Below, one piece after another: positions 2,827 through 19,178 of a stretch of DNA of 64,000 nucleotides. A model generated the notes under the pieces. The model had not been told where the DNA came from. It saw only the letters and a list, made by a program, of their open reading frames with translations, and searched no databases. The stretch is from an uncultured Staphylococcaceae bacterium (GTDB taxonomy: Bacteria; Bacillota_I; Bacilli_A; RFN20; CAG-826): NCBI GenBank assembly GCA_964433025.1, contig CAYSPV010000003.1, forward strand, positions 1,194-65,193. The letters run 5' to 3'. Numbering within the stretch: the first letter of the stretch is position 1; every line of letters begins with the position of its first letter. The translations under genes and the position numbers were made by a program.

Positions 2827-4230
2827 ATGAGCAATAAAGGTATCTTGCTTCCTATATCTTCTTTAGCAGGCCATCATGGTATTGGTGATATGGGAGTAGA
2901 AGCATTTAAATTTATTAGATGGCTAAATACTAGAGGATTTAACTATTGGCAAATTTTACCTATTAATCCTTTAGGACCAGGATGGTCTCCTTATATGACA
3001 ACTTGTAGTGAGGCTATTGATTTTCGTTATATTGATTTAGATGATTTATATAAGAAAGGTTTATTAGATAAACCTGTAAGAAAATATCATCCAAACAGCA
3101 AAAAAGCTTTATATGTTGAAAGTGGTATTTATAAACAAAAAATCTTAAAAAAAGCTTTTAAAAACTTTAAAAAAGATAATTTAGACAAATTAGAAAAATT
3201 TAAAAAGAAAAATAAATGGGTTATTAAATACGCTTTATTTAATATTTTTTATGAAAAAAATAATAAACTTCCTTGGAATAAATGGCCAAAAGAAGAAATG
3301 TTTTATTTAGAAAATCATAAAGCTTTAGAATATCCCAAACAATATAAAAACCAAGTCTTATATTTAATATTTGAACAATATATTGCCTACTCACAATGGA
3401 ATAAGTTATTGAGGTACGCTCATAGATATAATATTAAAATCATTGGTGATTTACCTTTTTATGTTGGTTATTCTTCTAGTGATTGTTGGGCTAATAAAGA
3501 TGTCTTTAATTTAGATTTTGATACTTATGAACCTAACACTGTCGCAGGTTGTCCACCTGATGGTTTTAGTGAAGATGGACAATTATGGGGTAATCCTACC
3601 TTTAATTTTGAAAAGATGAAAAAAAATAATTATAAGTTCTATGTTAATAGATTAGGGGCAGTAGCAAAGCTATGTGACATAGTAAGATTAGATCATTTTA
3701 GAGCTTTTGATGCTTATTATGCGATACCTAATGGGGCGCCAAATGCAAAGATTGGAGAATGGGTTGAAGGTCCATCTTATGGCTTTTTTGATGCTTATTA
3801 TAAAAAATATCCTAATGCAGATATAATTGCCGAAGATCTAGGCTTTATGACTGATAGTGTCTACGCCTTAAGAGATCATTATAACCTACCTGGAATGATA
3901 ATCTTACAACATGCTTTATTTGATCCTAACACGAAAGATAATGGTCATATGATAGTGTATACTGGCACTCATGATAATTATACGATTAAGTATTGGTATG
4001 ATAATTTAGATGATAACGCAAGAGCTTATATATCTAATATCATAGGAGCAGATCCTAACAAAGATCTATTAAAACAATTTATGGAATATGTATTTAGACG
4101 ACCATCAAAAATAACCATTATTCCTATGCAAGATTATCTATTATTAGGTAATGAAGCTAGGCTGAACGCTCCAGGAACATTTGGAAGTCCTAACTGGGAA
4201 TGGAAATTAAATAAATTACCAAAAAAATAA
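2827..4230 (+). CDS. malQ: 4-alpha-glucanotransferase (amylomaltase, GH77).
   Basis: Carries the GH77 motifs GDLPFYVGYSSSDCWANKDVFNLD, LDHFRAF and WVYTGTHDN-like, and is of the expected length. Confidence 0.85.
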   Translation: MSNKGILLPISSLAGHHGIGDMGVEAFKFIRWLNTRGFNYWQILPINPLGPGWSPYMTTCSEAIDFRYIDLDDLYKKGLLDKPVRKYHPNSKKALYVESGIYKQKILKKAFKNFKKDNLDKLEKFKKKNKWVIKYALFNIFYEKNNKLPWNKWPKEEMFYLENHKALEYPKQYKNQVLYLIFEQYIAYSQWNKLLRYAHRYNIKIIGDLPFYVGYSSSDCWANKDVFNLDFDTYEPNTVAGCPPDGFSEDGQLWGNPTFNFEKMKKNNYKFYVNRLGAVAKLCDIVRLDHFRAFDAYYAIPNGAPNAKIGEWVEGPSYGFFDAYYKKYPNADIIAEDLGFMTDSVYALRDHYNLPGMIILQHALFDPNTKDNGHMIVYTGTHDNYTIKYWYDNLDDNARAYISNIIGADPNKDLLKQFMEYVFRRPSKITIIPMQDYLLLGNEARLNAPGTFGSPNWEWKLNKLPKK

Positions 4231-8516: not shown

Positions 8517-8590
8517 GCCCCATTAGTTAAATGGCATAACGGATCCATGGTAAGGATCTATTCGTAGTTCGATTCTGCGATGGGGCACCA
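8517..8590 (+). tRNA. tRNA-Thr (anticodon GGT), 74 nt with an encoded CCA.
   Basis: Manual cloverleaf: acceptor GCCCCAT/ATGGGGC; D stem GTTA/TAAC; anticodon stem GATCC/GGATC with loop ATGGTAA; T arm CGTAG-TTCGATT-CTGCG; discriminator A plus CCA. Confidence 0.85.
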
Positions 8591-8597
8591 TAAATAA

Positions 8598-8619
8598 GGT
8601 CTTGTAAAAGACTTTTTTT
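8598..8619 (+). terminator. Rho-independent terminator after the tRNA (stem GTCTT / AAGAC, then T7).
   Basis: Hairpin GTCTTgtaaAAGAC followed by TTTTTTT. Confidence 0.55.
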
Positions 8620-8678
8620 GTTGTGTTATGAAGTTCGTTATGTTTCAAAAATAGTGCACCCACATAATAAGACCTTAT

Positions 8679-9653
8679 TTGTTTATAACTTCATGTTATA
8701 ATCAAAACATGAAAAGTAGTGCCACTAAAAGATTTAAAAGTAATCCGTATATTCCTAAATTCATCCTTAAAAATTTTTGTTTTGAAGGTAATAAGATTAA
8801 TTGTTATTCAAAAAAAGAAAATAAAGTCACTATTAAAGATATTGATGAAGCATTTAAAGATTATTTTTTAGAGGCGTTTGATGGATATGATTGGCCTTTG
8901 CTACTTAGTTTAGGGGACGGTATAAAAAAGTATGAAAAAGAGATGTATTCTTTATTTAAAAATAAAATATTAAATAAAAAGAAAAGAATAGTTTTAACAA
9001 AAGCAGAAATTGATAGTATAAAATATTTTTTCGCTTTAATATCGTTTAGAACAAAACTTAATGTAGGTGATTTTTTAGCTTTTTCTAAAGAATCAAAGTC
9101 ATGGTTTACGTGGTGGAGAGATAATGATTACGATGACTATACAGGAGGTTTTTGGCTAAGACATTTAAGTCGAATTTATCAGTGTAGATCGTTAAAAGAA
9201 ATGCTTAATAACGATAAAATTGCTGAACCTTTTAAAGTATATTTCAAATTAAAAACAGAAGGTTTGTTTGGAACTTATCTTTCTTTTATGACGAAATCTT
9301 TTCCAGAAAGTTGTTTTGAATTTTATATAGGTGAAAATTATCCAACTTTTATACCAAGTAAACTAAACCCAGATTTTGTAATATTGGGTATTATTCCTAT
9401 AAGTCCAGAACTTCTTATACTTTTAATTTCAAAAGGCGATGAAAAGAGTCGTGTTTTTGAAGAAGACATTATAAAAGATGCAAAAGATCTATTTATGGAA
9501 CCTACTTATGATGATGACAATGACACTTATATTCACATAATTAAAAATATAAAACATGCATATAATGATTTAATGGCTGAGATTGATATACGCAACGATT
9601 TTAATTATTTTAAAAATCGATATGAGCACATACTTTGGACAGTAAATGAATAA
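8679..9653 (+). CDS. DUF4238-like protein (a defense-island-associated family). The more likely start is the ATG at 8709 (MKSSATKRF...).
   Basis: The N-terminal motif NPYIPKFILKNF resembles the DUF4238 HxVPqFyLrnF signature. The track uses a TTG at 8679. An extended -10 TGTTATAAT (8693-8701) lies 7 nt upstream of ATG 8709, consistent with a leaderless mRNA. Confidence 0.55.
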   Translation: MFITSCYNQNMKSSATKRFKSNPYIPKFILKNFCFEGNKINCYSKKENKVTIKDIDEAFKDYFLEAFDGYDWPLLLSLGDGIKKYEKEMYSLFKNKILNKKKRIVLTKAEIDSIKYFFALISFRTKLNVGDFLAFSKESKSWFTWWRDNDYDDYTGGFWLRHLSRIYQCRSLKEMLNNDKIAEPFKVYFKLKTEGLFGTYLSFMTKSFPESCFEFYIGENYPTFIPSKLNPDFVILGIIPISPELLILLISKGDEKSRVFEEDIIKDAKDLFMEPTYDDDNDTYIHIIKNIKHAYNDLMAEIDIRNDFNYFKNRYEHILWTVNE

Positions 9654-9679
9654 TTATTTCAAATTAATAAATGGTGTTT

Positions 9680-9697
9680 AAAGTCTTATAAGACTTT
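9680..9697. terminator. Perfect 18-bp palindrome AAAGTCTTATAAGACTTT between the convergent DUF4238 and dinJ-like genes (bidirectional terminator).
   Basis: Perfect hairpin flanked by A/T runs, sitting exactly between two convergent stop codons. Confidence 0.55.
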
Positions 9698-9698
9698 C

Positions 9699-9959
9699 TT
9701 ATTTCTTTGCTAATTCTTTATATGCTTCTAGGTTTTCTTCAATTTTTTCTTTTGCAATCTTTTTAACAAGATTATCTGGAAGATATTCTACTGTAGACTT
9801 TTTACGTTTAATTTCAAATGGAACAGCTTGGTCTCTTATAGCTTGTCTAAAAAACATATTAACCGCAGCAGATAATGATAGTCCAAAATCTCCAAATAAT
9901 TCTTCAACTTCATTTTTTAAATCTTTATCTATACGTATTGTGATATTAACATTTCCCAT
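9699..9959 (-). CDS. RelB/DinJ-family (RHH) antitoxin-like protein, 87 aa, with no adjacent toxin gene.
   Basis: MGNVNITIRIDKDLKNEVEELFGDFGLSLSAAVNMFFRQAIRD matches the DinJ/RelB N-terminal RHH. The true start is the internal Met preceded by AAGGAGGG. The track's longer ORF (to 10046) has no RBS. Confidence 0.7.
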   Translation of the reverse strand: MGNVNITIRIDKDLKNEVEELFGDFGLSLSAAVNMFFRQAIRDQAVPFEIKRKKSTVEYLPDNLVKKIAKEKIEENLEAYKELAKK

Positions 9960-10139
9960 AAATTGCCCTCCTTTATACATACAATGTAATACAAATAGTG
10001 GACAAAATAAATATACATAATGTGTATTGTACATATTTTGACACATGGTATTTAAGGAATACCGCTGTGATGAAATATATGCTAATATTTATATAGAGAT
10101 TTATTCTATAAATCTATCTTAGAAAGAATATCATCTATC

Positions 10140-11000
10140 ATGACTAAACAACTAAATCAAAAACTACAAGATTATTTAAATAAAAATGGTTTTAATTTAA
10201 ATTTTGAATTTATCAATTCATATGAAAATGATTATTTTAAAAATACATCATTTACATCTAAATATAGATCATGGAATTTATTAATCTTAACAGGTATAAC
10301 TAAAAGTAATAAATCAGATAATAATAAAGATTATGATATAGATCTTATAAATAAAATAACGAAGTTATTATATGAATCTAATGATGAAGATCTAATTAAT
10401 ATAGCCTGGAATACATTTATTAATTATTGTCATGATGATAATAGATATATTTTATATGCCCCAATGAGTAGGGCATATAATCAATATCAATTAAATAAAG
10501 ATAATATATTTAATAATCACACGAATATATTAGAAACAGATAGATTAATATTAAGACCTAATAATGATAAAGATAATAAGATGTGTATAAACACATCTAA
10601 TCCATCATGTATAAGCTTTAATATCTTTAAAAAAGATAATGATGAATTAATAGGTATATATACATTATCTTATAATGATCTTAATGAAGATTATTTAGAT
10701 ATTAATTATTACTTTAAAGATAAAGAATATATAAAAGAATCTATAGATTTATTAGTGGCCGCTCTTAAAGATAAACAAGTTATATTTTATATAGAAAAAC
10801 ATAAAGACTATATATTTGAAGAATATATGCCTAATCCTATATATCTACGTATAGAAGTTCCTTTTGAAGACGAAGATAGAAATAACATAGCTAAAGCATT
10901 AGGCTTTGACTTAGTGGCCACTAAAACTAATGATAGATATTCTGATGAAGATACAAAATTAGAAACAATTAATACATATTTATTAAAGATAAGAGATTAG
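10140..11000 (+). CDS. Paralog 1 of a 4-member family: unknown N-terminal domain (conserved LLYESxDEDLxNIAWNTF) plus a degenerate GNAT (Acetyltransf_3/RimL-like) domain.
   Basis: LETDRLILRP is the classic Acetyltransf_3 N-terminal strand. C-terminal motifs IGxxxL, YYF and AKALGFDLV follow the GNAT fold. No RxxGxG/A acetyl-CoA motif. Confidence 0.6.
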   Translation: MTKQLNQKLQDYLNKNGFNLNFEFINSYENDYFKNTSFTSKYRSWNLLILTGITKSNKSDNNKDYDIDLINKITKLLYESNDEDLINIAWNTFINYCHDDNRYILYAPMSRAYNQYQLNKDNIFNNHTNILETDRLILRPNNDKDNKMCINTSNPSCISFNIFKKDNDELIGIYTLSYNDLNEDYLDINYYFKDKEYIKESIDLLVAALKDKQVIFYIEKHKDYIFEEYMPNPIYLRIEVPFEDEDRNNIAKALGFDLVATKTNDRYSDEDTKLETINTYLLKIRD

Positions 11001-11096
11001 ATTAAGTATTGAATTTATTTATATAAATATAAATGATTTATATGTTTTTATATTGCCCTTTAAATAGGAAAGGTATATGTAAGGGTCAATAAACCC

Positions 11097-11126
11097 TTGA
11101 AAAAAAAAAAAAAAAAAACGTAGAAT
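11097..11126 (+). promoter_or_regulatory. Promoter of the GmrSD-like gene: TTGAAA -N18- TAGAAT, with the spacer made almost entirely of a 19-nt poly(A) tract (11100-11118).
   Basis: -35 at 11097-11102, -10 at 11121-11126, and SD GTGAGGT before ATG 11158. Preceded by the hairpin AAGGGtcaataaaCCCTT (11081-11097). Confidence 0.5.
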
Positions 11127-11157
11127 TTTTTCTTGTAATATTTAGTGAGGTATAAGC

Positions 11158-12948
11158 ATGGGAAAATTTAGCATTATCAGTAACCCAGTTAGTTTTTTTA
11201 TAAGTAATATTGAAGCTGGAGCTTTAGGACTTCCTGAACTTCAACGTCCTTTTGTATGGGAAGATAAAAAAGCTAGAGATCTATTAAAATCTATGCTAAA
11301 TGGTTTTCCTATTGGCTTTATAATTTTATGGAAACAAGATAGTTCAGTACGAACTAAAAAAGTGAATTTAGAAAGTGGAGGTTATAAAGAACCTAATGAA
11401 GTAATTATTGATGGTCAACAAAGATTAACCTCTCTATATTCAATAATTAAAAATCGTGAAATATTTGATAAAAATTACAAAAAAAGAAAAATCATTATTT
11501 CATATAATCCTAATAATGATGAATTAGAAGTTGGCTCAGCGGCACATAAACAATCTCCAGATTGGATTTATAATATATCCGATATTTTTATAAATGATTC
11601 TTATGATGTATGGAATGCATATGTAAAAAGAAAAATAGAATCACTAGAAAGAAATGGTGAAATCATAACTGAAGAATATAAAGAACAATTAAAAAAGAAA
11701 ATATCCGCTAAGATAACTAATTTTAAAAAAACAATTCTTGATTATGATTTACCATATTTACAAATATATAATGATGTCGATGAAGAAGATGTGGCAAATA
11801 TATTTGTAAATATTAATTCTGGTGGCACTAAATTAAATCAATCAGATTTTATATTAACTCTTGTTTCTGTTCATTATCCTGACGGTAGAACACTAATTGA
11901 AAAATTTTGTAGTGATATGACTAAACATTTAGAAGATGAAAGAGAAGATATTTGTAATCCATTATTTAAATTTGAACCCGCTGATATTATAAGAATAGTG
12001 ATGGCGCTTGGATTTAAAAGAGGACGTTTAGTGTATGGCTATAAATTATTAAGAGGCGCGGATTTTGAAAAAAGAGGCGTTATTGATGAAGAATTAAGAA
12101 ATGAAAGATTTAAGGTTTTTGAACAAACATTAAACAAAGTATTAGATCGTAATAATTTTAAAGAATTTTTAAAATGTATTTATAAAAGCGGATTTGCTCA
12201 TAAAGATCTTCTTAGATCAAGAATAAATATTGTATATGCCTATGCTTTTTGGTTAATTGGAAAATATGATTTTAATATCGATATTTCTACTTTAAGTAAG
12301 ACTATAGCAAAATCATTTTATTTCTTTAATTTAACTTCTAGATATAGTGGTTCATTTGAAAGTTTATTTGAAAGTGAATTAAAAAAATTAGATATAGCAG
12401 ATAAAACAAGTGAATCATTTATAGAAATATTAGAAGAAGGACAAAAATTTAAATTAACTGATGATTTCTTTAATATTGAGCTAATTGGAATATTAAAAAA
12501 TACAGGTACATATTCTAGTGAATATAATACATATTACGCTGCTCAAAATATTTTAGAAGCTAAAGTATTATTTTCCAATCCTCAAATAAGTACACTAACA
12601 GCCTATACCCAACCTTTAAGTGGTAATAGAAAAGCAGTGGAATCACATCATTTATTTCCTAAAAATTATCTACATAATTTAGGATATAGAGAAGTTAATA
12701 TAAAAGATTTAGCAAATAGAGCTCTTGTTGAATGGTCAGATAATATGAAAGCCGAAGATAAAGCACCTAAAGATTATTATCCTGAATTTATTAAAAATAT
12801 GACTGAAGATGAAATAAAAAACATGCTTGATCTTAATGCATTACCTGATAATTGGTATGAAATGGAATATCTTGAATTTTTAGATGAAAGAAGAAAACTA
12901 ATAGCCCAAATAATTCGTAGAGGCTATGAAAAATTAAAAAAAGTTTAA
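11158..12948 (+). CDS. GmrSD-family type IV (modification-dependent) restriction endonuclease: N-terminal DUF262 (ParB-like NTPase) plus C-terminal DUF1524 (His-Me finger).
   Basis: DUF262 motifs LPELQRPFVWE and DGQQRLTSL are present. The C-terminal HHLFPKNYL...VEWSDN matches the DUF1524 HNH-like motif. Length is 596 aa. Confidence 0.8.
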   Translation: MGKFSIISNPVSFFISNIEAGALGLPELQRPFVWEDKKARDLLKSMLNGFPIGFIILWKQDSSVRTKKVNLESGGYKEPNEVIIDGQQRLTSLYSIIKNREIFDKNYKKRKIIISYNPNNDELEVGSAAHKQSPDWIYNISDIFINDSYDVWNAYVKRKIESLERNGEIITEEYKEQLKKKISAKITNFKKTILDYDLPYLQIYNDVDEEDVANIFVNINSGGTKLNQSDFILTLVSVHYPDGRTLIEKFCSDMTKHLEDEREDICNPLFKFEPADIIRIVMALGFKRGRLVYGYKLLRGADFEKRGVIDEELRNERFKVFEQTLNKVLDRNNFKEFLKCIYKSGFAHKDLLRSRINIVYAYAFWLIGKYDFNIDISTLSKTIAKSFYFFNLTSRYSGSFESLFESELKKLDIADKTSESFIEILEEGQKFKLTDDFFNIELIGILKNTGTYSSEYNTYYAAQNILEAKVLFSNPQISTLTAYTQPLSGNRKAVESHHLFPKNYLHNLGYREVNIKDLANRALVEWSDNMKAEDKAPKDYYPEFIKNMTEDEIKNMLDLNALPDNWYEMEYLEFLDERRKLIAQIIRRGYEKLKKV

Positions 12949-13062
12949 ATAATAATTATTTAAAGTAATAAACATATAAAGAAATAAAATCTACACAAAA
13001 TAGATCGTTTTAATAATGTCCAATAAACGGTACATGGTGGTTGAGGACCCCTAATAGTGGCG

Positions 13063-13092
13063 TTGACATAAAAAAAAAAAAAAAAGTATTAT
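13063..13092 (+). promoter_or_regulatory. Promoter of paralog 2: TTGACA -N18- TATTAT, with the spacer dominated by a 16-nt poly(A) tract (13070-13085).
   Basis: Perfect -35 at 13063-68 and -10 at 13087-92. The TAATAGTGG box lies immediately upstream. SD AAGGAGGT precedes ATG 13194. Confidence 0.5.
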
Positions 13093-13193
13093 AAACGCGA
13101 TGACATTTCTAGGTAGGAAATTTACATCTTAAGAAGAACAATTGATTTGTTTTTTGATTGAATAAATCAATAGACCAAGGAGGTACTCGGATT

Positions 13194-14153
13194 ATGTTAA
13201 CTGCTGATTTATTTTTAAAACTTAAGGAGTGCTTAAACGAAGAAAAAGTGGATTTTGGATTATATCCTTTTAATCTTCGTTTTGAGGATAATAAAAATCT
13301 TTCTTGGACTGGTAAATATGTATCATTAAACTTACTAGTGCTTACTGGTATTGCTAAATATAATCTATATCTTTTTAATGAGAAAAGTACAAAAATAGAA
13401 GACTATGATATAGATCTTATAAATCAAATCACTAAGTTATTATATGAATCTGGTGATGAAGATTTAAAAAATATAGCCTGGAATACCTTTTTTGAAGATT
13501 GTCAAGATGATGAAAGATTTATTCTTTATAAGGAAATAAATGCTGCTTTAGATGAAAAAGATGAACTATATGAAAAAGGAATAAATTTTAATCATACCAA
13601 AGAATTAGAAACTGAAAATTTGTTAATAAGACCTCAAAGAACTGAAGATAGTGAAATAATAGCAGATGATTTTATTGAATACGACCTTTTCAACATCCAC
13701 CATACAAGCATAGTTTCTACTTGTGATGAAACATGTTGTAGTTTTAATTTATTTTTAAAATCTAGCAATGATTTAATAGGTGCAATAGCGTTTGATTTCG
13801 GTGAAGATCAACTTGATGACAAAATGATGGATGTACATTACTACTTAATGGAAAAATATAAAAATAATATTGAGTATTTAAAAGAAGGATTGCAAGCAAT
13901 AATTAACGCTTTTAGGGAAAGAAAAGTAGTGTTATATTGTGAAAAACATAAAAAGGCAGTGTTTGAAGAATGGATACCAAACCCTGAATTTTTAGCTATA
14001 GAATGTAAAGATGATGACACTAATAGTAATGAAATAGCTAAATACTTAGGATTTGAATTTACTGGTGGTGATACTGAATTCGTATTTTGGGATGATAAAG
14101 ACGACCTAAGAACAAATAAAACAAACATATATCTATTAAAGGTAAATAAATAA
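13194..14153 (+). CDS. Paralog 2: unknown N-terminal domain plus degenerate GNAT domain. The track's ORF starts at 13158, but the RBS supports a start at 13194 (MLTADLFLKLKECL).
   Basis: Shares the N-terminal MLTxxLxxKLxxxL, the LLYESGDEDLKNIAWNTF block, LETENLLIRP and a C-terminal LGFEF with its paralogs. Confidence 0.6.
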   Translation: MLTADLFLKLKECLNEEKVDFGLYPFNLRFEDNKNLSWTGKYVSLNLLVLTGIAKYNLYLFNEKSTKIEDYDIDLINQITKLLYESGDEDLKNIAWNTFFEDCQDDERFILYKEINAALDEKDELYEKGINFNHTKELETENLLIRPQRTEDSEIIADDFIEYDLFNIHHTSIVSTCDETCCSFNLFLKSSNDLIGAIAFDFGEDQLDDKMMDVHYYLMEKYKNNIEYLKEGLQAIINAFRERKVVLYCEKHKKAVFEEWIPNPEFLAIECKDDDTNSNEIAKYLGFEFTGGDTEFVFWDDKDDLRTNKTNIYLLKVNK

Positions 14154-14237
14154 AAATCTTTAATAGTGCTTTAATTTATAAAGAAAGGAACTATACACTA
14201 TGCTAACATATGAATTACTTGAAAAACTTGAAAAATA
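14151..14237 (+). repeat. Direct repeat copy A. Covers the intergenic end and the first 38 nt of paralog 3. Copy B is 15121-15206.
   Basis: TAAAAA(T/A)CTTTAATAGTGC ... AGAAAGGAACTATACACTATGCTAACATATGAATTACTTGAAAAACTTGAAAA is near-identical in both copies. Repeat period is about 970 bp. Confidence 0.7.
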
Positions 14238-15123
14238 TTTAAGAAGGAAAAAAATAATAACAAATGCGTTTTTTAGTATTAATTATTCTACATCTGAAGG
14301 ATACTGGCTACATACATATGAGTCATGGGAATTATTAGCACTTACTGGGATGGCTAAGTATGCAGTTACACCCGATATTACTCCTAATGATGAAGATATT
14401 GAGTTAGCAAATAAAATCGTAAAATTATTATATGAATCTGGTGATGAAGATTTAAAAAATATTGCTTGGACTACATTTGCTCATTATGGAATTTGGGATG
14501 AAAGGTTTGTTCTTTGTAAGGAAATAACTACAGCTTGTCATAAAAAGGGTTATAAGAAAAATTGTAATCGCACTAAAGATATAGGAACAGATAATTTAAT
14601 AATAAGACGTCAAAATGCTAATGATGCTGAAAAAATTAAAGAAGATTCTGAAAATTGTGGTTCATTTATAGATTTCTTCAAATACTCTTCTGTGAGTGAT
14701 GAAACAGAGATTTGTTTTAGTTTATTTTTAAAAACTAATAATGAACTAATAGGTGCATTAGGATTTGACTTCGGTCCTTATCCAAGTGGTGATAAAGCAA
14801 CTATACATTACTATTTATTGGAAAAATATAAAGATAATGTCGAATATATAAAAGAAGCCTTACAAGCAATAATAAACACTATAAAAGAAAGAAAATTTAT
14901 AATCTATGTACAAAAACATAGATATTTTATCTATGAAGAATACGCACCAGATGTCCAATATTTATTAATTGAAAGTATAGGAGATTCTAGTATTGTTTAT
15001 GATAAATTAGCTAAATATTTAGGGTTTGAATTTGTTGGTGCTAGACTTGATGATTATCTTTTATATGGTCTAGATGAAAAAGATAAAACTAATGTATATG
15101 TATTAAAAATAAAAAATAAATAA
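14200..15123 (+). CDS. Paralog 3: unknown N-terminal domain plus degenerate GNAT domain.
   Basis: MLTYELLEKLEKYL; LLYESGDEDLKNIAWTTF; LIIRRQ; LGFEFVG. RBS is AAAGGAA. Confidence 0.6.
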   Translation: MLTYELLEKLEKYLRRKKIITNAFFSINYSTSEGYWLHTYESWELLALTGMAKYAVTPDITPNDEDIELANKIVKLLYESGDEDLKNIAWTTFAHYGIWDERFVLCKEITTACHKKGYKKNCNRTKDIGTDNLIIRRQNANDAEKIKEDSENCGSFIDFFKYSSVSDETEICFSLFLKTNNELIGALGFDFGPYPSGDKATIHYYLLEKYKDNVEYIKEALQAIINTIKERKFIIYVQKHRYFIYEEYAPDVQYLLIESIGDSSIVYDKLAKYLGFEFVGARLDDYLLYGLDEKDKTNVYVLKIKNK

Positions 15124-15206
15124 AAAACTTTAATAGTGCAAAAAATATTAAGAAAGGAACTATACACTATGCTAACATATGAATTACTTGAAAAACTTGA
15201 AAATTA
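15121..15206 (+). repeat. Direct repeat copy B (5' end of paralog 4 and its upstream region).
   Basis: See copy A. Identical stretches are 14181-14237 and 15150-15206. Confidence 0.7.
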
Positions 15207-16110
15207 TCTAAAAAGTAAAGGATTGAATTATGAATTTAATTCTTACAATTACGAGGATAAAAGTTTTTTCTCTGGGAGAACATGGACTGACAAATATGTG
15301 TCTTGGAATTTGTTGATACTTACTGATATTATTAAAAACAATATATTAAATTCTGATGGCTCACAATCTCCAATATATAATATTGAATTAATAAATAAAA
15401 TCACTAAGTTGTTGTATGAATCAGGCGATGAGGATTTAAAAAATATAGCCTGGAATACTTTTTTTGACCTGTCGGATGATGAAAGATTTATTCTCCATGA
15501 GGAAATGAACTCTGCTTTTAATAAATGGCTTTTCGAACCAAGGGTTACCAATCACACTGATAAATTAGAGACGCCTAATTTAATAATAAAAGCAAATAAT
15601 AAAGAAGATTCCAAAAAATTAAAAGCTTATATAGATAAATATGATTCTGAGAATAAAAGACCATACTATAGAATGATTCGTGACTATGATGCCAACACAA
15701 ATCTCTGTTTTAATTTATTTTTAAAATCTAGTAATAAAATAATCGGTTTTATTGTTTTATATTTTGAAAAATATCCTAATGAAGAAAAAGCATATTTAGA
15801 TTTTTATTTAAAGAAAAAATATCAAAACAAAATAGACTATTTAAAAGAGGCTTTGACAGAAATAATAAAAGCTTTAAATGAAAGAAAAGTCATGTTTTAT
15901 TGCTATAAACACAAACGATATGTACTTGAAGAATGGATTCCTAATATAAAGGTTTTGTTTATAGAAGATGTTAATAGTGCTTCTGGTGAAGTAGCTAAAG
16001 CGACAGGCTTTGAATTTATTGGGACAAACTCTATTTTTGTATTAGACGAAAAATATGACGGTTTTCTTCATGAAATATGTGATATATACGCTTTAAAACT
16101 AAAAGATTAA
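15169..16110 (+). CDS. Paralog 4: unknown N-terminal domain plus degenerate GNAT domain. The track ORF starts at 15136, but the real start is 15169 (its 5' end is identical to paralog 3).
   Basis: MLTYELLEKLENYL; LLYESGDEDLKNIAWNTF; LETPNLIIK; TGFEFIG. Confidence 0.6.
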   Translation: MLTYELLEKLENYLKSKGLNYEFNSYNYEDKSFFSGRTWTDKYVSWNLLILTDIIKNNILNSDGSQSPIYNIELINKITKLLYESGDEDLKNIAWNTFFDLSDDERFILHEEMNSAFNKWLFEPRVTNHTDKLETPNLIIKANNKEDSKKLKAYIDKYDSENKRPYYRMIRDYDANTNLCFNLFLKSSNKIIGFIVLYFEKYPNEEKAYLDFYLKKKYQNKIDYLKEALTEIIKALNERKVMFYCYKHKRYVLEEWIPNIKVLFIEDVNSASGEVAKATGFEFIGTNSIFVLDEKYDGFLHEICDIYALKLKD

Positions 16111-16177
16111 TAAATCTATTAAGAATAATAATATAAGCAGACCAAAAAAAATCATTTAAACAAAGGAGACTAATAAT

Positions 16178-17971
16178 ATGGAAGTAGATAATCAATACAT
16201 AGTTTCAGAATTACAAGCAAGGCAAACTGACACCGCAGCTATTAAAAGAAATGACGAAGCTAAAAAAATAAGAGATGAATTTAGATCTAAATTTGGCCCT
16301 GATGTTTTGAAAAACATTAAAGAAGATGAGGTTATTGCAAAGTTGTTTTCAAAAGAAACTGTAAACCGAGACAGCTTGTTTCATTATCTCGAATACAACA
16401 AAAACAACAATCAAGTATTTGGAGGAATAGCTGGCGGTAATGATAGAAAATGCATTTGTAAATATGATAGAAATAGCAAGACATGGGTTTTTTATGAAAG
16501 TAGTGGGCAAAAAGAAATATCTGAAGATGGCGCAATTAAATACAGCATGGAGATAATAGATACATTAATAAAATCTTGCGAAATAGTAGATAAACATTAC
16601 AGCAACAATGAAATTGATTATTCAAGTTTATATGAAGAATTTGAAAAAGAATTTGCTAATAATGATATTGGTAAAATCGTCATAAAACAACTATGGTTTA
16701 TGAAATATCTCAATATGCTATATCCTAATTTATTAGTTAGTTGGTATAACGAATATATGTTAGATCAACCTATTAAGTACTTGGAAATTTCAGATGGAAA
16801 TATCGATATAACTAGTGAATACAAAAGAAGATTTATTAAAAATGGATCTATCGCAAATTTTTGTAGAAATCATAGTATTTCAACTGATATTTTCTATTAC
16901 CTAATGCAGTGGGAACGAATCCCAGGCGTGAGAATAAAAACAAAAAAAGAAGGAAATAAAGAAATGGAGGATAATATTCAAAAAGCTACTACAAATAACA
17001 ACGAAACACCAATTAATAAAGAAAAAGCTAAAGGCGAAAACCTTATCGTCTATGGTGTCCCTGGTGTAGGTAAAAGCCATTATGTAGATGAAGAATACAA
17101 ATTAAAAGGTGTAAATAAAAATTTCTTTGAAAGAGTAGTGTTCCATCCTGACTACACCTATTCAGATTTTGTAGGACAAATTATGCCTAATGTGGATGAA
17201 AATGGCAAACTAACTTATAAATTTGAACCAGGACCATTTACACGTATTTTAGCAAGAGCAATAAATGATACAGAAAATAAGTATTATCTAGTTATTGAAG
17301 AAATCAACAGGGGTAATGCTGCGGCAATATTTGGTGATATATTCCAATTATTAGATAGAGAAAAAGATGGTACAGGTAGATATGATATAACAAATAAAGA
17401 TATCGCTAAAGAAGTTTATGGTTCTAGTGATAGTAATAAAAAAATACGTATACCATCTAATTTAAGTATTATTGCTACGATGAATACATCTGATCAAAAT
17501 GTATATACATTAGATACTGCATTTCAAAGAAGATGGAAAATGCATTTAATTCCTAATAAGTTTAAAGAAGATAAAACTGATAAAAATTATATCGGAAATG
17601 TCGAATTATTCGATAGTGGTATTACCTGGAGAGAATTCTGTGAAAAAGTTAATAAAAAAATATTAGATAATAATTCTTCATATATCTCTACAGAAGACAA
17701 ACGTTTAGGTATTCATTTTGTAAGTAGAGAAGAAATTGAAAAGACTGAAGCTAAACAAGCTTTTGCAGAAAAAGTCTTAAAATATCTATGGGATGACGCT
17801 TTTAAAAATAATAGAGAAGAATTATTTAATAAGAACTGCGAATCTTTAGAAGATGTCATAGATAAATTTAAAGATAGTAAAGATAATGGATTTGCTGCTG
17901 TATTAAATATTGAGTTTAATGACGTAAACAATGAAAGCAGTGATAATACCACAAATGAAGAATCAAATTAG
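16178..17971 (+). CDS. McrB-like AAA+ GTPase of a McrBC-type type IV restriction system, with an unrecognised N-terminal domain of about 290 aa.
   Basis: Walker A YGVPGVGKSH. McrB signatures IEEINRGNAAAIFGDIFQLLDRE and IIATMNTSDQNVYTLDTAFQRRW are present. RBS is AAAGGAG. Confidence 0.85.
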   Translation: MEVDNQYIVSELQARQTDTAAIKRNDEAKKIRDEFRSKFGPDVLKNIKEDEVIAKLFSKETVNRDSLFHYLEYNKNNNQVFGGIAGGNDRKCICKYDRNSKTWVFYESSGQKEISEDGAIKYSMEIIDTLIKSCEIVDKHYSNNEIDYSSLYEEFEKEFANNDIGKIVIKQLWFMKYLNMLYPNLLVSWYNEYMLDQPIKYLEISDGNIDITSEYKRRFIKNGSIANFCRNHSISTDIFYYLMQWERIPGVRIKTKKEGNKEMEDNIQKATTNNNETPINKEKAKGENLIVYGVPGVGKSHYVDEEYKLKGVNKNFFERVVFHPDYTYSDFVGQIMPNVDENGKLTYKFEPGPFTRILARAINDTENKYYLVIEEINRGNAAAIFGDIFQLLDREKDGTGRYDITNKDIAKEVYGSSDSNKKIRIPSNLSIIATMNTSDQNVYTLDTAFQRRWKMHLIPNKFKEDKTDKNYIGNVELFDSGITWREFCEKVNKKILDNNSSYISTEDKRLGIHFVSREEIEKTEAKQAFAEKVLKYLWDDAFKNNREELFNKNCESLEDVIDKFKDSKDNGFAAVLNIEFNDVNNESSDNTTNEESN

Positions 17972-19178
17972 AATAGAAAAAGATTTAGATTATGTTGGTT
18001 TAAAGAGTGACGATAAAGAATTTATCTTCGCTTTTCCTTATGGTTATAATTTTGGAAATAAAGAAGATCGTATACTAAATAAAGAAGATTATATATTAAG
18101 AAAAGATATTAAGAAGATAATGTCTGTTATTCGTAAATGTAAGAAGGCTAATCCTCTTAGTATAAACGGATCTGAAGATGATAATGATAATCTACCTTTT
18201 GAGGATTATATTTATTTAATTGAGTATTATTTACAGCATAATAGATGTTATTACATGGAAAAAGAAATATCTTATCGTAATGATACAAGAGGTAAGATAG
18301 ATTGGTCTAAAACTATTAAAAGAAATAAACCTTATATACAAGACGATGAAATCGTCTATTTAAAACAAACTATTAGAGAAAGTAAGTTATTAGATAATAC
18401 TTTAATTACAGAATTACATAAATACTGTACGATTGAATCTATTAATAAATTAGGTTTTTTATATGGTGTAGAAACCAAAGATAAAAGTAGTTTAAAAATA
18501 GATGAAAAGAACAAGAACATGTATATTCAAATCATACATAAATACATGTCTAAGACTCATGATAATAATAAGATTAGACTATTCAGTGCGATGATTAATG
18601 TTATAAACAACATCGATACTAAAGATAAATCAGTTAATTATTACACTGAAGAGTTTCGTACTGTATGGGAGTATATGATCGATAATGTCTATGGTATTAA
18701 GAATAAGAATGAGTATTATCCTCATGGTAAATATAAAGGTAAAGAAGAAAAAAAGATTGACGAAGATGAAAAAGAACAAAAAGAAAAACAAAAGACCGCT
18801 TTAAGACCTGATAGTATTATGAAATTAAATAATGAATATTATGTTTTAGATGCTAAATATTATAAAGAAGGTAATTTACCTAATTCATCTGATATAAACA
18901 AGCAAATTACTTATGCTGAAAAAGTAAAATATAAAGAAGAATTAGATGATCTTTATAATGCATTTATATTACCTTATGATGGCAAAGGTGTTGATAACAT
19001 TAAATTTGATACATACGGATATGGTGATTGGTATAAATTAAATAAAAACTATCATCGTGTAGCGGTCATCTATATGGACACTAAATATCTTTTGGATATT
19101 TATAATAAAACTAGTGAGAAGATAAAACATCAAAAAGATTTAGCTAAAGAAATTCAAAAAATACAAGAGGCAAAATGA
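17931..19178 (+). CDS. McrC-like nuclease subunit (PD-D/ExK). It overlaps the McrB gene by 41 nt.
   Basis: C-terminal LRPDSIMKLNNEYYVLDAKYYKEG matches the McrC PD...D-x-K core. Position and coupling to McrB fit. Confidence 0.7.
   Translation: MKAVIIPQMKNQIRIEKDLDYVGLKSDDKEFIFAFPYGYNFGNKEDRILNKEDYILRKDIKKIMSVIRKCKKANPLSINGSEDDNDNLPFEDYIYLIEYYLQHNRCYYMEKEISYRNDTRGKIDWSKTIKRNKPYIQDDEIVYLKQTIRESKLLDNTLITELHKYCTIESINKLGFLYGVETKDKSSLKIDEKNKNMYIQIIHKYMSKTHDNNKIRLFSAMINVINNIDTKDKSVNYYTEEFRTVWEYMIDNVYGIKNKNEYYPHGKYKGKEEKKIDEDEKEQKEKQKTALRPDSIMKLNNEYYVLDAKYYKEGNLPNSSDINKQITYAEKVKYKEELDDLYNAFILPYDGKGVDNIKFDTYGYGDWYKLNKNYHRVAVIYMDTKYLLDIYNKTSEKIKHQKDLAKEIQKIQEAK

Follow-up and report, generated by a model that had tools for sequence, protein, structure and literature searches.

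Poly(A) tracts as spacers of two promoter-like elements in a bacterial defence island: a candidate repeat-spaced promoter switch ahead of restriction genes

Genes of the defence island

In the window (the whole stretch of DNA that we analysed, 64 kb in length), a defence island adjoins a gene for tRNA-Thr (GGU; 8517-8590). After this tRNA gene, a DUF4238 gene and a RelB/RHH-like gene on the minus strand mark the start of the island (8517-10046). They are followed on the plus strand by a gene for a 286-aa protein without a Pfam family, which belongs to an orphan family of ~300-aa proteins (paralog 0; 10140-11000); by a gene for a 596-aa homologue of the GmrSD-family (BrxU-like) Type IV restriction enzymes (11158-12948); by three tandem genes for further members of the orphan family with a weakly GNAT-like C-terminus (paralogs 1-3; 13194-14153, 14200-15123, and 15169-16110); and by genes for a McrB-like AAA_5 ATPase (16178-17971; McrB at 1.7e-18 in addition to AAA_5) and a LlaJI-type endonuclease (17931-19178; RE_LlaJI at 4.9e-26). 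PADLOC assigned the last two genes (16178-19178) to REase_II (2.8e-91 and 1.6e-55), and there is no methyltransferase gene near this pair. Two promoter-like elements, which we refer to as P1 (11097-11126) and P2 (13063-13092), contain long poly(A) tracts, and both precede restriction-type genes of this one island.

The 596-aa protein had been named GmrSD in the original prediction, and this identity is borne out by its Pfam match, its motifs, and a structural match. Type IV enzymes of the GmrSD family combine an N-terminal DUF262 domain (a ParB/Srx-like NTPase) with a C-terminal DUF1524 domain (a His-Me finger nuclease), and their cleavage of modified DNA, for example DNA with glucosyl-hmC, is stimulated by NTP. 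In the window protein, residues 15-233 match Pfam GmrSD_N (PF03235) at 1.2e-30, and the DGQQR motif (D85 G86 Q87 Q88 R89) is invariant in an alignment of 23 homologues. In the C-terminal part, the same alignment contains the invariant pattern E495-x-H497-H498..P501-K502..N520..N529, which is typical of a His-Me finger; Pfam GmrSD_C did not match the window protein and matched only one of the 23 homologues (E 0.061). BrxU (PDB 7p9k) was the only PDB sequence match below an E of 0.001 and, when an AlphaFold2 model of the protein (pLDDT 81.7) was searched with Foldseek, the sole structural match, with full-length coverage (E 2e-11, TM-score 0.37). The window protein thus has the N-terminal DUF262 with DGQQR and the C-terminal His-Me-finger-like motif of BrxU/GmrSD (PDB 7P9K; PMC8565348, PMC4619093), and with 596 aa compared to 587 aa it is similar in length to its sole structural neighbour; it differs from BrxU in that the identity is 14-16%, the TM-score is 0.37, and GmrSD_C is undetected. 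Based on these sequence comparisons and the predicted structure, we accept the protein as GmrSD-family, with a C-terminal nuclease domain that is putative and supported indirectly.

The GmrSD gene interrupts the array of orphan-family genes, lying between paralog 0 and paralogs 1-3. The proteins encoded by paralog 0 and by 13194-14153 share 40% aa identity (E 6e-67), all four paralogs are 40-46% identical to one another, and the sole homologue outside this genome is 39% identical. Just past the GmrSD stop codon, the stretch 12950-13005 resembles the junctions between one paralog and the next (…TTTAAAGTAA…ATATAAAGAAATAAAATCTACAC…). This arrangement of the sequence suggests that the GmrSD gene and the block containing P2 may have been inserted into a pre-existing paralog array. 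A separate observation comes from a Logan contig (L016, from run SRR7039263 of study SRP141132), in which positions 1-1546 correspond to window positions 13752-16266: the 3' end of paralog 1, which is 99% identical to that in the window, is joined directly to paralog 3, and paralog 2 is skipped. The contig may come from a closely related strain with a different copy number in the array, or the assembly may have collapsed here.

Two promoter-like elements framing poly(A) tracts

On the plus strand, positions 11097-11126 read TTGAAAAAAAAAAAAAAAAAAACGTAGAAT. A -35-like hexamer TTGAAA (11097-11102) and a -10-like hexamer TAGAAT (11121-11126) had been predicted here, 18 nt apart, and the sequence confirms these positions and this spacing. 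The run of A's that had been proposed to fill 11100-11118 is pure and exactly 19 nt long; its first three A's are the last three of the -35 hexamer, and its other 16 make up the 18-nt spacer of P1 together with the CG that follows them. In a consensus scan, P1 was the sole plus-strand promoter-like match in the 157-nt intergenic region 11001-11157, with 10 of 12 consensus positions and a spacer of 18. The end of the -10 hexamer lies 31 nt from the ATG of the GmrSD-family gene (11158), and a ribosome binding site (RBS), GTGAGG (11145-11150), is read from the sequence 7 nt before this ATG. The order of -10 hexamer, RBS, and ATG gives P1 a coherent layout. We also considered TAATAT (11136-11141) as an alternative -10 hexamer and rejected it: there are only A's where a -35 hexamer would be due 17 nt upstream, and transcription would start inside the RBS. 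A scan found no terminator after the upstream gene (10140-11000) and before the GmrSD gene; the GmrSD gene could therefore also be transcribed by read-through from upstream. A search for known RNA families between 10000 and 14000 found none.

P2 lies 2 kb downstream of P1, and the next gene cluster begins ~100 nt after it. It reads TTGACA-T-A16-G-TATTAT, that is, a consensus -35 hexamer (13063-13068), a poly(A) tract of 16 nt (13070-13085) that makes up 16 of the 18 nucleotides of the spacer, and a -10-like hexamer (13087-13092), all on the plus strand. P2 matches 11 of 12 consensus positions and ranks first among the promoter-like sites of the 5-kb scan (9500-14500). Because a scan of 14153-19178 found no terminator and no strong plus-strand promoter, P2 is likely the promoter of the whole cluster 13194-19178, and the McrB/LlaJI pair are probably the distal genes of its transcription unit. 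The leader of ~95 nt on the 3' side of P2 (13093-13193) contains a 12-bp stem at about 13141-13171 (CAAUUGAUUUGU…AUAAAUCAAU); this stem had no match in Rfam, and the overall fold of the leader was not significant (z -1.5). Both tracts are intergenic, are poly(A) on the coding strand, and lie at sensible distances from an RBS and a start codon.

To place the tracts against their background, we counted the homopolymers in the window. There are 303, 120, 40, and 4 runs of A of 5, 6, 7, and 8 nt, respectively, and then only those of 16 and 19 nt, which also are the only homopolymers longer than 8 nt in the 64 kb. The four runs of 8 nt lie at 3619, 16144, 26219, and 42826. The two pure runs therefore lie 8-11 nt past the end of the window's own A-run length distribution, and Tandem Repeats Finder reported no other notable simple repeats in the 64 kb. 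The window is 27% GC, and pairs of promoter-like hexamers as such are not enriched (40 found compared to 43.5 expected from shuffled sequences, not significant). What is significant is that the hexamers coincide with an outlier tract, not the hexamers alone. We quantified this coincidence by placing a tract of the same length at each eligible position in the window, with the bases actually present there as its neighbours. A tract of the length of A19 was framed by hexamers with at least 10 of 12 consensus positions at 0.31% of positions, and a tract of the length of A16 by hexamers with at least 11 of 12 at 0.028% of positions. The joint chance that both tracts are framed is about 1e-6, arguing that the link between tracts and hexamers is not accidental. 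Two of the features that mark a phase-variable promoter-spacer repeat, a position between the -35 and -10 hexamers and a length far above background, are found here.

These numbers bear on the idea that the tracts arose incidentally, through cassette insertion or slippage expansion in AT-rich intergenic DNA, in which case the hexamers would be fortuitous and transcription would come from elsewhere. Such an origin would agree with the position of the GmrSD gene between paralog 0 and paralogs 1-3, with the junction-like stretch after its stop codon, with the two tracts flanking it as direct poly(A) runs, and with the lack of a terminator between it and the upstream gene. It is hard to reconcile with the low joint chance of promoter framing, with the rank of P2 among the sites scanned, and with the sequences flanking A19 and A16, which are unrelated to each other. 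Moreover, homology to the only related copy of the locus (see below) is uninterrupted across A19, for which reason we also rejected A19 as an insertion boundary. Altogether, we regard an origin of the tracts as by-products as quite improbable.

Comparison with related genomes

The protein encoded by paralog 0 has a single twin, on contig CAYQCM010000053.1 (here, L001) of the MAG GCA_964416045.1. L001 is a SPAdes-style NODE contig of a short-read MAG, and long homopolymers in assemblies can be off by a base. L001 5797-7956 and window 10091-12256 are 96.3% identical over 2166 aligned bp with two gap openings; the homology begins only at 10091, and L001 ends inside the GmrSD gene. Paralog 0, the A-tract promoter, and the GmrSD gene are, thus, a module that is conserved in a second genome. 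Upstream of this module L001 differs from the window and carries a second GmrSD_N gene (encoding 641 aa), a DUF4177 gene, and another DUF4238 gene.

One of the two gaps falls in the tract: the window has CCCTTG-A19-CGTAGAAT and L001 has CCCTTG-C-A16-CGTAGAAT. In this one comparison of two assemblies, the L001 tract is a net 2 nt shorter than that of the window, the flanks are 96-97% identical, and the two sequences agree throughout the 60 nt that follow the tract. As a consequence, the P1 orthologue in L001 has TTGCAA as its -35 hexamer and a spacer of 16 nt compared to 18 nt in the window. The difference between A19 and C plus A16 is the pattern that would be expected of a slippage-prone tract, as judged from this single pair of assembled sequences.

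Homopolymers are error-prone and the sequence comes from a metagenome assembly; we therefore considered that the tract might be an artefact, such as a poly(A) read-through or a chimeric join, that arose in sequencing or assembly. Two independent assemblies, however, have a tract at this position with flanks conserved on both sides, and the ORFs on both sides of it are intact; we therefore give an artefact very little credence.

A different explanation accepts P1 and P2 as promoters and takes each tract as a static element, a rigid AT-rich spacer that gives fixed expression, so that length differences between strains would be neutral drift. There is a cautionary precedent in the variable vpma locus of M. 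agalactiae, in which experiments showed that a poly(T) tract, a homopolymer immediately upstream of the -10 hexamer, does not bring about ON/OFF variation and has no switching role (PMC2268961). In addition, the three assembled spacers (18 nt in P1, 16 nt in L001, and 18 nt in P2) are all different from the optimal 17 nt, which an ON/OFF model does not predict. A fixed spacer, however, needs no homopolymer purity, and runs that reach so far past the length distribution of the window are intrinsically unstable. Moreover, the sole available comparison already shows a change in length. On balance, we consider static spacers rather unlikely, and we continue with the reading in which the length of the tracts varies.

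We also searched for other relatives of the locus. At 90% identity, the GmrSD protein is a singleton, with the next relatives at only 56%; searches for further copies of the locus returned only the L001 MAG among genome contigs and only homologues at 31-32% identity among JGI metagenomes, and the locus was not found among viral contigs searched by protein and by DNA pattern. As far as these sequence searches indicate, the lineage is poorly represented in public data. The upstream regions of the GmrSD homologues from other hosts, at 54-56% (L005-L015) and at 31-32% identity (L003-L004), and of the paralog-family homologue at 39% (L017), also from another host, contain no homopolymers of at least 8-9 nt. 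We therefore rejected the tract as a feature of the gene family and conclude that it is a property of the regulatory DNA of this lineage.

The comparison with L001 also informs on potential RNA structures near P1. A hairpin with a 7-bp stem and a 6-nt loop is present on the plus strand at 11080-11099 (UAAGGGU-CAAUAA-ACCCUUG; -7.9 kcal/mol, z -2.27). The original prediction had a hairpin abutting the -35 hexamer; the hairpin with its seven pairs is real, but its 3' arm overlaps the TTG of this hexamer and does not merely abut it. The hairpin is kept in L001, where one change in the loop results in a longer stem. We rejected the hairpin together with the A-run as a terminator: on the plus strand no T-run follows the hairpin, which therefore does not have the form of a canonical terminator; the T-run on the minus strand comes before the hairpin; and the scan found no terminator there. 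A second hairpin further upstream (TGTCCT-TTAAAT-AGGACA) is perfect in L001 (6756-6773), the intergenic region of which has a fold with a z of -4.4. In the window, the corresponding stem (11055-11072) is broken by two changes relative to L001. Because both changes break pairs and neither compensates the other, we did not retain this stem as a conserved structure.

As for the host, ORFs in the window are long and intact under genetic code table 11, with TGA as the stop codon in 6 of 50. Relatives of the PNPase encoded in the window, at 81-89% identity and one of them on a 1.25-Mb contig, are labelled 'Bacilli bacterium' or 'Erysipelotrichaceae bacterium'. The analogy to Mollicutes drawn in the original prediction would imply a host that reads UGA as Trp, and this does not hold: because the code is standard and the PNPase relatives are Bacilli/Erysipelotrichaceae, the host is not such a mycoplasma. 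Rather, the labels of these relatives point to a low-GC Bacilli-type MAG, allied to lineages once called Mollicutes. We note a mismatch of labels in that the sister MAG GCA_964416045.1 was deposited as 'uncultured Eubacteriales bacterium' while the PNPase relatives carry Bacilli/Erysipelotrichaceae labels.

The proposed switch and its relation to known systems

Our working hypothesis, to which we give roughly even credence, is that P1 and P2 are sigma-70/sigmaA-type promoters whose spacers are set by hypermutable poly(A) tracts, and that slippage in these tracts modulates two defence systems. Homopolymers of 16-19 nt have high slippage rates and are intrinsically unstable, and the optimal -35/-10 spacer is 17 bp. 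From such established knowledge we infer that the two tracts slip at a high rate, that the 17-bp optimum applies here, and that RNA polymerase uses the hexamers. In the proposed mechanism, P1 and P2 would be read by the housekeeping sigma factor and the length of each poly(A) tract would set the -35/-10 distance. Strand slippage during replication would add or remove A's; because the -35 hexamer of P1 is partly made of tract and that of P2 directly flanks it, each slip would shift the spacer by one (16, 17, 18, 19, and so on). The altered spacer would, in turn, alter the contact of RNA polymerase with both hexamers, heritably and reversibly. Clonal cells would then express differing amounts of the GmrSD-family enzyme from P1 and, independently, of the cluster that ends in McrB/LlaJI from P2, and the range of expression could lie anywhere from graded to ON/OFF. 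The population would thereby hedge its bets, with phage defence balanced against openness to modified foreign DNA. Because no methyltransferase is paired with a Type IV enzyme, switching would not be self-toxic.

As a whole, the interpretation of the tracts as poly(A) switches is partly supported, and our analysis makes the locus a credible candidate for a repeat-spaced promoter switch in an unusual host and with an unusual target. More tentatively, and with less confidence than in the switch itself, we suggest that one island could hold two independent modification-dependent restriction systems, one GmrSD/BrxU-like and one McrB/LlaJI-like, under separate vlp-type promoters with at least four combinatorial immunity states. 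If so, these would be the first Type IV enzymes under a promoter repeat, and this kind of switch would be older and wider than pathogenic mycoplasmas and would here serve phage defence and not antigenic variation.

If the tracts switch, modified phage or plasmid DNA would be cut in some cells of this commensal-type bacterium while others would be permissive, without the self-toxicity problem of classical restriction-modification (R-M) systems. Contingency loci, known from surface antigens of pathogens, would then also occur in the defence islands of gut MAGs, and the defence content predicted from MAGs would overstate the immunity that is actually expressed. A review of phase variation leaves open whether multi-locus variation of this kind is truly restricted to pathogens or whether the restriction reflects a database bias (PMC11868660).

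Phase variation is widespread among R-M systems of Types I and III (PMC12707154; PMC11868660), in which it acts via repeats inside coding sequences (PMC12707154; PMC11868660; PMC9465063). They resemble what we propose here in that a simple-sequence repeat would lead to stochastic switching of restriction and to heterogeneous barriers to DNA entry. They differ in that the repeat lies in mod, hsdS, or hsdM and acts by frameshift with a change in the methylome, whereas here it lies in a promoter and the enzyme is Type IV-like. Because Type IV-like enzymes are methyltransferase-free, no epigenetic regulon is expected in our case. In Bacteroides, phase variation is reported to bring about heterogeneous expression of defence systems. 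Among the top-ranked literature matches, there was no phase-variable GmrSD and no promoter repeat of a Type IV system.

Repeats in promoter spacers are known from the poly(G) tract of N. meningitidis porA, the poly(C) tracts of opc and fetA, and the (TA)n repeat of H. influenzae hifA/B. As proposed for P1 and P2, the length of the repeat sets the -35/-10 spacing in these systems, and expression there is graded (high, intermediate, or none). Unlike the tracts in the window, these are G/C or TA repeats, they are found in Proteobacteria, and they control surface antigens.

The closest architecture is that of mycoplasma surface antigens. In the vlp promoters of M. hyorhinis, the ON state has a tract of 17 A's. 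Indels in the spacer switch the transcription of vlp, maa2, and vmm in mycoplasmas (PMC2268961), and in M. hyorhinis vlp the -35 and -10 hexamers enclose a poly(A) tract (Citti & Wise 1995, as cited in PMC2268961). The original prediction had likened P1 to vlp, and the likeness stands: the layout is the same. M. hyorhinis vlp, M. arthritidis maa2, and M. mycoides vmm share with the window a pure poly(A) of about 16-20 nt on the coding strand as the spacer. In vlp, moreover, the tract recurs at more than one promoter of a single cluster, which allows combinatorial states as P1 and P2 would, and the host here is a low-GC relative within the Bacilli/Mollicutes radiation. In contrast to vlp, in which the products are surface lipoproteins, the genes in the window encode cytoplasmic restriction and defence proteins, the genetic code is standard, the host is an uncultured gut-type MAG, and switching is a proposal.
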